A DNA stretch of 34,289 nt from assembly GCA_045634565.1 (NCBI GenBank), contig JAZRAM010000030.1:1-34289 (forward strand). The letters are read 5' to 3'. The DNA comes from Bacilli bacterium. Its GTDB lineage: Bacteria > Bacillota_I > Bacilli_A > RF39 > UBA660. How positions within the stretch are numbered: the first letter of the stretch is position 1; each line of letters begins with the position of its first letter. Positions 1,427 through 4,331 of this stretch are shown here, piece after piece. Below the pieces are notes generated by a model. That model had not been told where the DNA came from, did no database searches, and saw only the letters and a list, made by a program, of their open reading frames with translations. A program made the position numbers and the translations under genes.

Positions 1427-1981
1427 TTACAACTGATTAAAATAACTTATTATTTGTTGTTGAATGTTTTTATTTTTAAAAAGAGAACACCAATCTATGT
1501 TATTTTTAAACTCTTTGATAAAGTGTTCTGAGAGTTTTTGATATTTTGAAATATATTTCCAATCAAGTTTATCACTAAATTCTCTTATGAAAGATTCGGA
1601 TAGTTTTTGATATCTTGAAATAAGTTTCCAATCAAGTTTATTATTAAATTCTCTCATCAAGTCTTCTGAGAGAATTTGATGTTGTGAAATACGATACCAA
1701 TGAACTTGTTTATTAAATTCTCGTATCAAATCTTCTGAGAGAATTTGATGTTGTGAAATATATTTCCAATCAAGTTTATCTTGAAATTCTCGAATAAAAG
1801 ACTCTGATAATTTTTGATATTTTGATATTATATTCCAATGTACATCATCTTGAAATATTCTTATGAAATCTTCGGAGAGTTTTTCGTTCATTAATATTTC
1901 AAACCAATTTAAATTATCTATTATACTATAATTCTTATTTAATTCTCTATTCAGAAAGTCTAATTTTTCTTGTTCTGTCAT
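1427..1981 (-). CDS. 23-residue tandem-repeat protein (ISxxQxLSEDFIREFxDKxDW family)
   Basis: I prefer the ATG at 1981 (MTEQEKL). It has the same N-terminus and the same gtcataatctt context as paralogs 3220..3771 and 3783..4331. About 6 repeats. Confidence 0.8.
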   Translation of the reverse strand: MTEQEKLDFLNRELNKNYSIIDNLNWFEILMNEKLSEDFIRIFQDDVHWNIISKYQKLSESFIREFQDKLDWKYISQHQILSEDLIREFNKQVHWYRISQHQILSEDLMREFNNKLDWKLISRYQKLSESFIREFSDKLDWKYISKYQKLSEHFIKEFKNNIDWCSLFKNKNIQQQIISYFNQL

Positions 1982-2000
1982 AATCTTATTATTTTTAATA

Positions 2001-2040
2001 TAACGGAACAAACCTCAATGTATGAAGTATTGTTCCGTTA
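2001..2040 (-). terminator. 11-bp stem hairpin after 2048..2902
   Basis: TAACGGAACAA / TTGTTCCGTTA arms with an 18-nt loop. No clean U-run. Confidence 0.5.
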
Positions 2041-2047
2041 ATAAATG

Positions 2048-2902
2048 TTACTTACCCCTCATTATATGAGCAGATGCTATCTCAAAAATTGAATCCCAAT
2101 CACCTTTTCTATCTTTTGGTTGTCGAGCTATATTATCTTCTTTACATTTTAACGCTTTTAACCATTTGTGGAAGGGATAATCATCTCTAATTTCTATCCA
2201 TGATTTTACAAGAGATTCTAACCCACTTGGAGCACCATATCCAATTGTATTTAATATTTGAGTCAATTCTTGAATAATTGTATTAGCAAAATTTATTTCT
2301 TCATCTGTAATTAATAACTTACCTAATCTAAATTCATTATTAATATTTTTAATATTAAAACCCTTTAAACCTTTTCTATATTTTAACATCAATAAAACAC
2401 GTCGATACGCTTTTTGACGTGGGGCACCTATTGTTGAAATTAGCGTTTTATTCTTCTCAAATTTTAATCGTGGTGCATTTTGAAATAAAGTATCTAACTT
2501 ATTATACACAGCGGTATATTTATTTAAACTTTTATTAGTCTCAATAAAGTCAATATTTCTCCAATTATGTAATGAACTATTAACATCAATACAATATTCT
2601 AATTCACTTATATTATTTAACTGTATATATTTCACATCTAATTGGGTAGAGTTAGGTATTTCCTTTTTTTCAATTAAATTTAAGTAGGCTTTTACTCGAT
2701 GTTGTCCATCTAATATATTATTAGTGTCAATATTAATAGTAATTTCATTTAGAAAACGAGAATGTTTCTTAAATTCAAATTCTTTTTCTTTAACATTGTT
2801 GTAATTCAACGTACGATTACCATTCATAAATTTAAATTCTTTTACACGATTTATGTTTTCACGTGTTACACCCACAATAAAAAATTTTTCTGTTTGTTTC
2901 AT
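2048..2902 (-). CDS. ParB/Srx-fold protein with DGQHR motif (DndB-like)
   Basis: 284-aa ORF. ILDGQHRVKAY matches the DGQHR signature of the ParB N-terminal-domain superfamily. No partner dnd/HNH domain in the same ORF. Confidence 0.65.
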   Translation of the reverse strand: MKQTEKFFIVGVTRENINRVKEFKFMNGNRTLNYNNVKEKEFEFKKHSRFLNEITINIDTNNILDGQHRVKAYLNLIEKKEIPNSTQLDVKYIQLNNISELEYCIDVNSSLHNWRNIDFIETNKSLNKYTAVYNKLDTLFQNAPRLKFEKNKTLISTIGAPRQKAYRRVLLMLKYRKGLKGFNIKNINNEFRLGKLLITDEEINFANTIIQELTQILNTIGYGAPSGLESLVKSWIEIRDDYPFHKWLKALKCKEDNIARQPKDRKGDWDSIFEIASAHIMRGK

Positions 2903-2939
2903 TTTTAATTTTTTTTTAAGTTAAAGTTTAAATTAATTA

Positions 2940-2953
2940 TACTCATTTGAGTA
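2940..2953. promoter_or_regulatory. class II palindrome TACTCATTTGAGTA
   Basis: 38 nt upstream of ATG 2902. Confidence 0.6.
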
Positions 2954-2965
2954 ACATATATAGAT

Positions 2966-3211
2966 TTATATATTACTTATTTTAACATAATCTAAATAAA
3001 GAGCGTAAGATATTTCATCTTGTGTTTTTTCATCTATTATTTTTACATAACGAGGAATAAAATCACATTCTTCCATGAGAATTGGTAATTGAATATTATA
3101 TTTACGTTTAATTCCACGAACATGTTCTAAAGTATAAACTTTTGATTTGTCGTGATTATAATAATGAATTGTATATAGTTTCTTCGTACTAAATCGTTGT
3201 ATTTCTGCCAT
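2966..3211 (-). CDS. hypothetical protein
   Basis: 81-aa ORF packed tightly between neighbours on the same strand. Confidence 0.6.
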   Translation of the reverse strand: MAEIQRFSTKKLYTIHYYNHDKSKVYTLEHVRGIKRKYNIQLPILMEECDFIPRYVKIIDEKTQDEISYALYLDYVKISNI

Positions 3212-3219
3212 AATAGTTA

Positions 3220-3771
3220 TTAATTTAAAATTATATTAATTAATTTTTGTTCCATATCTTCTCTCATAAAGATACTTCTCCAATGTAATTTATCTTTAAA
3301 CTCTCGAAGAAATTCCTTTGATAGGTTTTGATAACGTGATATAAGAATCCAAATAACTTTATCTTGAAACTCTTTAATAAAATTTTCAGATAGTGTTTGA
3401 TATCTTGAAATCCTATGCCAATCAAGTTTATTGGAAAATTCTCTTATAAATGGTTCAGAGAGTGTTTGATATTTTGAAATATATTCCCATTCAAATTTAT
3501 CTTGAAATTCTCTAATAAAAGATTCAGATAATTTTTGATGTCTTGATATATTACTCCAATCAACCTTATCTTGAAATTCTACAATAAAAGATTCTGAAAG
3601 TTTTTGACTCTCTGAAACACAACGCCAAAAAATTATATCTTGAAACTCTCTAATAAAGTTTTCAGATAGATTTGGATGCCATGAAATGACATGCCAATTA
3701 ACTTCATTTAATGAAGTATAATTTTTTCCACATTCTTTATTAATGTATTTTAATTGTTCTTGTTCTGTCAT
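3220..3771 (-). CDS. 23-residue tandem-repeat protein (family member)
   Basis: 183 aa. MTEQEQLKYINKEC N-terminus followed by about 6 repeats of W..IS..QKLSE.FI.EFQDK. Confidence 0.85.
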   Translation of the reverse strand: MTEQEQLKYINKECGKNYTSLNEVNWHVISWHPNLSENFIREFQDIIFWRCVSESQKLSESFIVEFQDKVDWSNISRHQKLSESFIREFQDKFEWEYISKYQTLSEPFIREFSNKLDWHRISRYQTLSENFIKEFQDKVIWILISRYQNLSKEFLREFKDKLHWRSIFMREDMEQKLINIILN

Positions 3772-3782
3772 AATCTTTACTA

Positions 3783-4331
3783 TTAATTAAAATAATTTAT
3801 AATAGATTGTTTAAAATGTTTATTGTTAAACAAAGAATGCCAATCAATTTTATCTTTAAATTCTCTTATAAATGATTCAGATAGTTTTTGACACATTGAA
3901 ATCCAATGCCAATCAACTTTATTCTTAAATTCTCTTATAAAATCTTCGGATAGTTTTTGTCTATTTGAAATCCAAAACCAATCTACTTCATCTTGAAATT
4001 CTCTGATAAAGTCTTCTGAGAGTTTTTGATTGTGTGAAATACAATCCCAATTTACTTTATCCTTAAATTCTCTAATAAAATCTTCGGATAGTTTTTGATT
4101 TCTGGGAATCCAAAACCACTCTACTTTATCTTGAAATTCTCTGATAAAGTCTTCTGAGAGTTTTTGTTTACTTGAAATCCAAAACCAATCAACTCTATCT
4201 TGAAATTCTCTTATGAAATCTTCGGATAGTTTTTTATCTGCTGAAATATTTTCCCACTTAACTTCATTTAATGAAGTATACTTAGTATTACATTCTTTAT
4301 TAATGTATTTTAATTGTTCTTGTTCTGTCAT
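3783..4331 (-). CDS. 23-residue tandem-repeat protein (family member, most regular)
   Basis: 182 aa with six near-identical KLSEDFIREFxDKVDWxWIS units. The DNA shows a 69-bp periodicity. Confidence 0.85.
   Translation of the reverse strand: MTEQEQLKYINKECNTKYTSLNEVKWENISADKKLSEDFIREFQDRVDWFWISSKQKLSEDFIREFQDKVEWFWIPRNQKLSEDFIREFKDKVNWDCISHNQKLSEDFIREFQDEVDWFWISNRQKLSEDFIREFKNKVDWHWISMCQKLSESFIREFKDKIDWHSLFNNKHFKQSIINYFN
3850..4250. repeat. 69-bp (23-codon) tandem repeat array inside CDS 3783..4331
   Basis: Recurring ttgaaattctctgataaagtcttctgagagttttt and aaattctcttataaaatcttcggatagttttt blocks alternate at 69-bp spacing. Boundaries are approximate. Confidence 0.7.

Follow-up and report, generated by a model that had tools for sequence, protein, structure and literature searches.

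Predicted alpha-solenoid proteins of the tryptophan repeat gene family on a contig of a probable jumbo phage

Results

Six genes for proteins built from 23-residue units

The contig JAZRAM010000030.1 of the Bacilli bacterium assembly GCA_045634565.1 (34,289 nt, analyzed over its whole length and here called the window) is probably part of a large, uncultivated phage and carries six genes, named A to F, for proteins made up of tandem units of 23 residues (Table 1). A previous reading made from the DNA alone (the sequence-only reading) had listed these six open reading frames (ORFs) as one family; all of them are present, and all are located on the minus strand. The proteins A to D contain exactly six units each, where about six had been counted, with the consensus W-x2-I-S-x2-Q-x-L-S-E-x-F-I-R-E-F-x-D-K-V-D. 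The L-S-E motif occurs six times in each of these four proteins at a spacing of exactly 23 residues, and all 24 units have W1, L10, S11 and F18. A hidden Markov model (HMM) of the unit, built from these 24 units themselves, recognizes each of them with E-values of 1e-12 to 1e-16. At the DNA level, Tandem Repeats Finder recovered the 69-bp periodicity. Three units of C open with W-F-W. The N-terminus that three of the proteins had been said to share is identical in B and C (MTEQEQLKYINKEC), is similar in A (MTEQEKLDFLNRELNKNY) and recurs internally in D, after an extension of ~55 residues. For A, the ORF listing also offers a longer TTG start at position 2011; the ATG at 1981 is the better match to the paralogs. 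The start of B lies 11 nt past the stop codon of C, and B is therefore probably co-transcribed with C.

When the 235 six-frame ORFs of the window were searched with an HMM of the whole family, exactly six were picked, A to D with E < 1e-70, paralog E with 8.6e-14 and paralog F with 4e-5, and the next-best ORF followed at E 0.017. Paralog E is a clear, degenerate member, as had been suspected (hhalign probability 96%, E 1.8e-9). The same suspicion about F is probably correct as judged from sequence comparisons: its local phmmer matches in a set of 5,434 sequences were family members only (best E 4e-14), and a BLASTP alignment over 88 residues covered ~four units in register (E 1e-6), but hhalign gave a probability of 38% and aligned the cap alone. 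HMMs at the level of the unit missed both E and F, even after four iterations on 780 units; full-length profiles were needed.

A further 70-aa ORF, which begins with MTEEQK, contains a single unit fragment, WLIENFIREFK (unit HMM E 7.5e-4; family HMM E 0.017), and at 7857-7887 it holds a copy of the repeat family D13, a 31-nt segment of the unit, with 84% identity to the reference copy. This ORF may be the relic of a seventh member.

The unit belongs to the tryptophan repeat gene family

The sequence-only reading had been unable to place the unit in a named class. A name exists, however, and the unit is not novel: the six genes are almost certainly members of the 'tryptophan repeat gene family', a label carried by MSV027, MSV205, AMV029 and BpSp gp045, and the window is mainly another carrier of this family. 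According to database annotations and secondary citations, the name was first annotated in entomopoxviruses, and the MSV proteins were named in the genome annotation of the Melanoplus sanguinipes entomopoxvirus. All six proteins match PHROG 3532, which is annotated 'unknown function'; further profiles of the family are phrog_11920 and phrog_22019. In tblastn searches, gp045 of Bacillus phage vB_BpuM-BpSp (BpSp), annotated 'tryptophan repeat gene family protein', was matched at 48.7% identity (E 2e-30), and a Foldseek search of BFVD returned MSV027 with 143 columns at 47% identity, an rmsd of 1.0 and an E-value of 4e-17. The same search also returned AMV029, MSV205, members from the Mythimna, Adoxophyes and Choristoneura entomopoxviruses, gp558-563 of Bacillus phage G, and proteins of Pithovirus, Marseillevirus, Orpheovirus, Megaviridae, an iridovirus and a nucleopolyhedrovirus. 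The link to large phages and giant viruses that had been drawn from the sequence was thus borne out.

Among cultured phages, 19 records were matched by tblastn, every one of them with a genome of at least 185 kb, and four of these phages have 29-37 family places per genome, including Listeria phage LPJP1 (34), Bacillus phage G (29) and BpSp (37); the window has six paralogs in 34 kb. Such a confinement to genomes of at least 185 kb would suit virion structural proteins or assembly scaffolds for a very large particle, as would a homolog that adjoins tail-tube and baseplate genes in one metagenomic phage. We assign this explanation a small likelihood, because the publication describing 23 identified proteins of the BpSp virion makes no mention of the family despite the 37 places in that genome. 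Furthermore, the genes of the window are located amid small uncharacterised genes and not in a morphogenesis module, and a structural component would not usually come in 6 to 37 divergent paralogs.

When 1.84 billion representative proteins were searched exhaustively, 7,541 clusters (50% identity) were obtained at E <= 1e-3 and 3,796 at E <= 1e-10, and the proteins of the family contain between 2 and 26 units. Genome scans detected the family in numerous bins of bacteria and archaea; mis-binned phage contigs may account for some of these. In the isolates of Planococcus and Planomicrobium (L046-L063, L069), one chromosomal homolog of 320-380 aa is present in every listed Planococcaceae genome, and at the one locus inspected (L061 5923-6927) it sits amid housekeeping genes (a hemY-like oxidase, LysM/NlpC-P60 and Ogt); these homologs apparently represent a cellular, non-mobile branch of the family. 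Scans of the six proteins with Pfam, NCBIfam and PADLOC gave sub-threshold noise alone (DUF5078, DUF2204, DMP12, PcxA), as did the defence and counter-defence models of PADLOC (E 0.002 or worse). In the literature we found the name of the family in annotation tables alone and no discussion of its structure or function.

The best non-orthologous matches of paralog E (E 1e-39 to 1e-52) are proteins of ~1,000 residues from Bacteroidales bins of the ruminant gut (L016, L018, L021, L022), which have 22-26 Trp-repeat units and are without a signal peptide. These matches hint at a gut Bacteroidales association of the window's origin.

A predicted solenoid with two short helices per unit

An AlphaFold2 model of paralog C, computed from an alignment of 34 sequences, reached a pLDDT of 94.8 and a pTM of 0.85. 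Each 23-residue unit is modelled as one 7-residue and one 6-residue helix, and the array is placed between an N-terminal cap helix and a C-terminal helix, with no beta strand. A second model, of the 299-residue homolog P0007, was again a solenoid (pLDDT 91.3). The proteins are therefore predicted, with high confidence, to be alpha-solenoids with two helices per unit, in agreement with the helical scaffold that the sequence-only reading had proposed. A Foldseek search of the Protein Data Bank (PDB) with the model of C gave a best E-value of 3, and the sequences in the PDB returned nothing meaningful when queried with one protein or with the family profile. A 23-residue, all-helical solenoid with no detectable relative in the PDB is a worthwhile structural target and possibly a compact scaffold for binder design.

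The proteins are most likely soluble and cytoplasmic, since their maximal Kyte-Doolittle values are 0.62 or lower, in comparison with ~2.1 in membrane-protein controls, and a hydrophobic segment is lacking. Isoelectric points (pI) range from 4.3 to 6.2 over the six, with a pI of 4.3 and a net charge of -21 for D and a pI of 5.3-6.2 and a net charge of -2 to -5 for A, B, C, E and F. The strongly acidic D could be taken for a nucleic-acid mimic, in the sense of an anti-restriction decoy, and the regular units with hypervariable pairs at positions 2-3 and 6-7 for a modular reader comparable to TALE, PPR or PUF proteins, in which these pairs would form the code; the neighbours, which include a DUF932 gene, a ParB-like ORF and a restriction-modification pair, fit such a role as well. 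We nevertheless regard it as quite improbable, because five of the six proteins are near neutral, which is more basic than a DNA mimic should be and more acidic than a nucleic-acid binder should be, and because nucleic-acid-binding repeat families and structures were not matched. In addition, aromatic and mixed residues abound at the variable positions, where a restricted code was not seen.

Fusions and a DUF7666-like partner domain

The closest homologs in the databases are mostly ~300 residues long, consisting of the cap, the repeats and a conserved C-terminal domain of ~110 residues, and several of them are encoded on phage-like contigs. This domain, present in P0005, P0007, P0040, P0042 and P0112, has a weak alignment to DUF7666 over its whole length (E 0.097), and in other homologs, among them P0080, the DUF7666 domain is N-terminal (E 2.6e-23). 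Among 63 long homologs, a RING finger, a protein kinase and a DSP-type phosphatase were each found once as a fusion partner, and the protein AMV254 is reported to combine an F-box with Trp repeats (PMC7728225). Fusions of such variety are the pattern expected of a ligand-recognition module that is attached to varied effectors. DUF1699 (PF08004), with which about one third of the listed homologs are labelled in precomputed annotations, was not reproduced at E <= 0.01 when P0007 and P0042 were scanned, and we treat these labels as faint.

The model of P0007 matched the PDB with a best E-value of 0.04, and ADP-ribosyltransferase toxins were enriched among the matches (CNFy domains 4-5 at E 0.04, C3larvin, CDTa, C3bot1, Iota Ia and VIP2), all of which were above E 0.001, with TM-scores of 0.26 or lower for the ADP-ribosyltransferases. 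A kinship of the DUF7666-like domain to ADP-ribosyltransferases is a lead provided by these model comparisons. It bears on the possibility that the stand-alone proteins of the window serve a separately encoded enzyme as its targeting or regulatory subunits; they would do in trans what the fusions do in cis and deliver an effector to its substrate without being inhibitors themselves. The frequency of the DUF7666-like domain among the closest homologs, one of them confidently modelled, and the enrichment of toxins would both be expected in that case, and a member of a second small paralog family, which comprises three genes, is located directly upstream of each of the repeat genes C and E. We consider such a division of labour unlikely, as a DUF7666-like gene was not found in the window, the toxin matches are as poor as stated and the adjacency amounts to two cases only.

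Variable surfaces, turnover of units and selection

The variation within the unit was analyzed as entropy over 780 units from 74 loci. Positions 2, 3, 6, 7, 9, 13 and 19 reached 3.0-4.1 bits, the core positions W1, I4, L10, F14, I15, F18 and V22 were conserved at 1.8 bits or lower, and the polar positions S5, Q8, S11, E12, D20 and D23 were conserved as well. On the first helix (helix A), positions 2, 3, 6 and 7 would point away from the side that carries the conserved positions 1, 4, 5 and 8.

Units C2-C5 are 83-87% identical in DNA, indicating a recent internal duplication and a turnover of units by duplication, in line with the expansion by duplication that had been postulated for the family. 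Positional orthology of units between paralogs was rejected, with 68.8% identity for units of the same index and 68.9% for units of different index.

A search of metagenomes with the promoter motif described below yielded the 45.5-kb contig JAEIGA010000847.1, the sole close relative found, which is 85-93% identical to much of the window. The possibility of measuring selection against this relative is the window's main contribution. The ortholog of D has 81% protein identity and a dN/dS of 0.29 and that of E has 94% and 0.26, values that lie inside the range of the neighbouring genes (0.07-0.78 in the same comparison) and show D and E to be functional genes under purifying selection. The slot of F is occupied in the relative by an unrelated 217-aa ORF with internal repeats of its own, in the form of recurring G-K-L motifs (L078 3604-4257), between conserved flanks, indicating that single members of the family are exchangeable. 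Furthermore, the relative lacks the gene at 17993..18772 and has the zinc-ribbon gene at 29473..29784 in a different place, which looks like a cassette-like exchange of genes between conserved promoter and terminator elements.

The dispensability of the F slot, the ease with which units duplicate and the G+C content of 25% could all be read as signs that the repeat proteins have no function and result from repeat expansion, or that their ORFs were mis-called in repetitive DNA rich in A+T. The data on selection and conservation make this highly improbable: the dN/dS values of D and E are low enough to argue for function, the same residues are conserved in 7,541 related clusters across viruses of bacteria and eukaryotes, and the fold is predicted with confidence.

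Promoter-like elements, terminators and neighbouring genes

The repeat genes are embedded among short genes, many with a promoter-like motif of their own and some with an intrinsic terminator. The 20-mer GATTGTGAAAAATCTAGATT occurs in 17 copies with at most three mismatches, all on the minus strand, which is the gene strand, against 0.05 expected by chance. It forms the core of a 60-80-nt upstream element, ...GATTGTGAAAAATCTAGATT(A/G)AAATTGGTTATAT..GTAAGAAACAAA in gene orientation, of which ~25 copies are located 20-50 nt before start codons. It is probably the main promoter of the genome to which the window belongs; its spacing is not that of a sigma-70 promoter. Nine near-identical intrinsic terminators (CCTCCAAACGATAAAAAGTTTGGAGG followed by a T run, in gene orientation) directly precede the promoter-like element, an adjacency suggesting that many genes are self-contained terminator-promoter cassettes. 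A second class of intergenic motif consists of the palindrome TACTCA(A/T)TTGAGTA followed by TATATA and may be an operator or an alternative promoter. D and F are located behind the GATTGTGAAAAATCTAGATT element, C and E behind the different, palindromic motif.

The window has a G+C content of 25% throughout, and its minus-strand ORFs are tightly packed up to ~30 kb. It is probably part of a phage of jumbo size, as judged from the gene content, the regular transcription units and the association of cultured carriers with large genomes. A megablast search with 12 kb of the window gave no DNA match in cultured phages, a 695-aa protein had no match in phages, and the DUF932 protein was 24-28% identical to proteins of crAss-like phages, with nothing closer. 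No relative of the window was found in IMG/VR, which was searched by protein and by promoter motif, and the assembly index had no exact copy of the protein. The 47 predicted genes end in TAA (38), TAG (8) or TGA (1), and as a trinucleotide TGA is commoner than TAG (1281 versus 1041). We saw no sign of recoded stop codons, since TAG closes 8 of 47 genes and the ORFs are intact under table 11.

Several neighbouring features were noted. The tRNA gene next to C (Rfam 44.9 bits) has an anticodon loop of 8 nt, TTATATAA, and was assigned a four-base anticodon ('atat') by ARAGORN. Candidate identities are a frameshift-type tRNA and a tRNA-Ile(UAU)-like gene whose loop contains one additional base. Two adjoining genes form a restriction-modification-like pair, one encoding a GmrSD_N/HNH protein with a full-length match to the PADLOC model 'REase_II' (type II restriction enzyme; E 7.9e-129), the other an EcoRI-type adenine methyltransferase (Pfam E 2.5e-136), and both are kept in JAEIGA010000847.1 (98% and 76% protein identity). 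The window also contains a lysin-like gene of the glucosaminidase type, which has a hydrophobic segment at the N-terminus, besides the DUF932 gene and the ParB-like ORF. The members of the second small paralog family have in common an N-terminal domain of ~55 residues (K-x-A-I-x-G-H-x-T-R-x-x-E-I-I-x-x-L-E-x-x-G-G-x-N ... V-Y-F-I) and had no match in Pfam or PHROG.

Table 1 Repeat genes, regulatory elements and neighbouring features of the window
Feature	Coordinates	Strand	Description
Paralog A	1427..1981	(-)	184 aa: N-terminal cap, six 23-residue units (array 1493-1906), C-terminal cap helix; phrog_3532 E 1.9e-55; family HMM E 3e-79
Paralog B	3220..3771	(-)	183 aa, six units (array 3283-3696); phrog_3532 E 1.8e-51
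Paralog C	3783..4331	(-)	182 aa, six units (array 3843-4256); phrog_3532 E 9.6e-64; protein used for the AlphaFold model
Paralog D	17247..17882	(-)	211 aa: acidic N-terminal extension of ~55 residues, cap, six units (array 17253-17666); phrog_3532 E 4.3e-51
Paralog E	14277..14711	(-)	144 aa, clear degenerate member: recognisable cap, ~four units of 23-26 residues; phrog_3532 E 3.6e-8
Paralog F	27782..28291	(-)	169 aa, probable strongly divergent member; phrog_3532 E 1.3e-4
69-bp arrays	1526-1884, 3320-4248, 17309-17672		Tandem Repeats Finder
Putative relic ORF	7822..8034	(-)	70 aa, single unit fragment
60-80-nt upstream element	5950-30300 (region)		~25 copies
GATTGTGAAAAATCTAGATT copy	17931..17950	(-)	49 nt upstream of the start of D
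GATTGTGAAAAATCTAGATT copy	28344-28363	(-)	Upstream of F; identical to the copy at 17931..17950
GATTGTGAAAAATCTAGATT copy	24666-24685	(-)	Within the 5950-30300 element set
Nine intrinsic terminators	10989-11045, 12786-12842, 15994-16050, 17955-18011, 19375-19431, 20083-20139, 23143-23199, 27148-27204, 27712-27768		Directly before the promoter-like element
Palindromic motif TACTCAATTGAGTA then TATATA	4338..4388	(-)	Between the tRNA and the start of C; also upstream of E at 14730-14780
TACTCA(A/T)TTGAGTA class	1375-1425, 2919-2969, 4338-4388, 14730-14780, 17168-17202, 18808-18842, 26256-26290		Second class of intergenic motif
tRNA gene	4391-4464	(-)	Anticodon loop of 8 nt
Second paralog family	4470-5243, 9881-10393, 14767-15324	(-)	Shared N-terminal domain
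Restriction-modification-like pair	24769-25884, 26013-26975	(-)	Adjoining genes

Discussion

Proposed function

Our preferred reading, in which we place about even confidence, is that the repeat proteins are paralog-specific, protein-binding adaptors or decoys. In such a protein, an N-terminal cap helix would be followed by four to six helix-turn-helix units of 23 residues, with W1, I4, L10, F14, I15, F18 and V22 forming the hydrophobic core and S5, Q8, S11-E12 and D20/D23 providing helix caps and contacts between units. Positions 2, 3, 6 and 7, together with 9, 13 and 19, would then make up a ligand-binding surface that differs in every paralog. Binding would be stoichiometric, each paralog docking on a different host or phage protein, which could be sequestered, inhibited or retargeted during infection, by analogy with the way in which ankyrin, LRR and TPR scaffolds work. 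That the ligands are proteins, that they belong to the host and that the binding serves takeover or counter-defence is what we infer. The role in host interaction or counter-defence, which the sequence-only reading had mentioned as frequent for such expansions, would find indirect support in the domain fusions of other family members and in the location of the genes within an array of short units with a promoter and a terminator.

Several points weigh against adaptors or decoys. The shared face of positions 2, 3, 6 and 7 rests on helical periodicity and not on measured geometry, and variable surface positions would also fit a relaxed constraint on any exposed face. The evidence from fusions is thin, as these were single cases among the 63 long homologs, most of which have no recognisable partner, and our search of the literature returned no ligand, interaction, expression or phenotype data for any member of the family. 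Finally, the copy amid housekeeping genes in the Planococcaceae suggests that the repeat module is not confined to conflicts between viruses and their hosts.

A wider proposal, which we put forward as doubtful in its entirety, sees the Trp-repeat solenoid as a structurally new class of scaffold, a diversifiable binder used by bacterial and eukaryotic viruses and perhaps by archaeal ones. The stand-alone paralogs would act as infection-stage adaptors that neutralise or redirect different host proteins, for example components of defence systems, and the DUF7666-like domain would be a small ADP-ribosyltransferase-like effector delivered by the repeats.

A specialist would not be surprised to meet the family in a large phage. 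It is, however, a large family (7,541 clusters) common to phages, giant viruses and insect poxviruses, for which neither a Pfam model nor a solved structure is available. If the proteins do bind host proteins, the known phage factors for takeover or counter-defence would be joined by a new class, which would help to account for part of the unannotated gene content of jumbo phages.

Comparison with known repeat classes and systems

The exclusion of the leucine-rich repeat (LRR), MORN, ankyrin, TPR and Sel1 classes in the sequence-only reading is in agreement with the profile searches and the model. The LRR signature LxxLxLxxN is not in the consensus of the unit, a Pfam LRR match was not obtained and the model has no strands. 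MORN proteins also have a unit of 23 residues, with a consensus rich in G-x-G and a structure of beta-hairpins; no Pfam match to MORN was found at E up to 1, and the model is all-helical. For ankyrin, TPR, Sel1, HEAT and Armadillo repeats the unit would have to be 33-44 residues long instead of 23, and there was no Pfam match and no PDB fold better than E 3. In TALE, PPR and PUF solenoids the units span 33-36 residues, the binding surface is basic and recognition follows a restricted code; the proteins of the window gave no profile or fold match to them and have a pI of 4.3-6.2. The leucine-rich variant (LRV) repeat is a helical solenoid (alpha/3-10) with units of 24 residues, two short helices and no invariant Trp. 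It is a possible relative that resembles the Trp unit in its shortness (~23-24 residues) and its two short helices; the consensus differs, no LRV entry better than E 3 was found in the PDB with Foldseek, and a profile search of PDB sequences was negative.

The ankyrin host-range proteins of poxviruses and giant viruses, including the ankyrin/F-box (PRANC) proteins, are expanded, fast-diversifying helical repeat scaffolds, some of which are fused to ubiquitin-ligase adaptor domains. The Trp-repeat family resembles them in its expansion and diversification in large viruses, which would be a functional analogy, since the ankyrin repeat has 33 residues and a beta-hairpin L-shape, the Trp unit has 23 residues and is all-helical, and there is no match in sequence or structure.

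Closer is the likeness to the entomopoxvirus proteins MSV027, MSV029, MSV205 and AMV029, which share with the window the W-anchored unit of 23 residues, the predicted fold and the presence of multiple copies per genome. The hosts of these viruses are insects and not bacteria, and their proteins are mostly longer (290-620 aa), with an F-box in at least one (AMV254) that makes sense only with the eukaryotic ubiquitin system, whereas the proteins of the window consist of repeats only. Among phages, gp558-563 of Bacillus phage G, gp045 and gp053-056 of BpSp and the proteins of LPJP1 (PHROG 3532, 11920 and 22019) are 49-56% identical over 82-88% of C. The window has no detectable DNA similarity to any cultured phage and represents an uncultivated element of low G+C content with promoter motifs of its own, but its repeat proteins are of similar size to those of these jumbo phages and, as in them, are encoded in clusters and in multiple copies (29-37 places per genome in the cultured phages).

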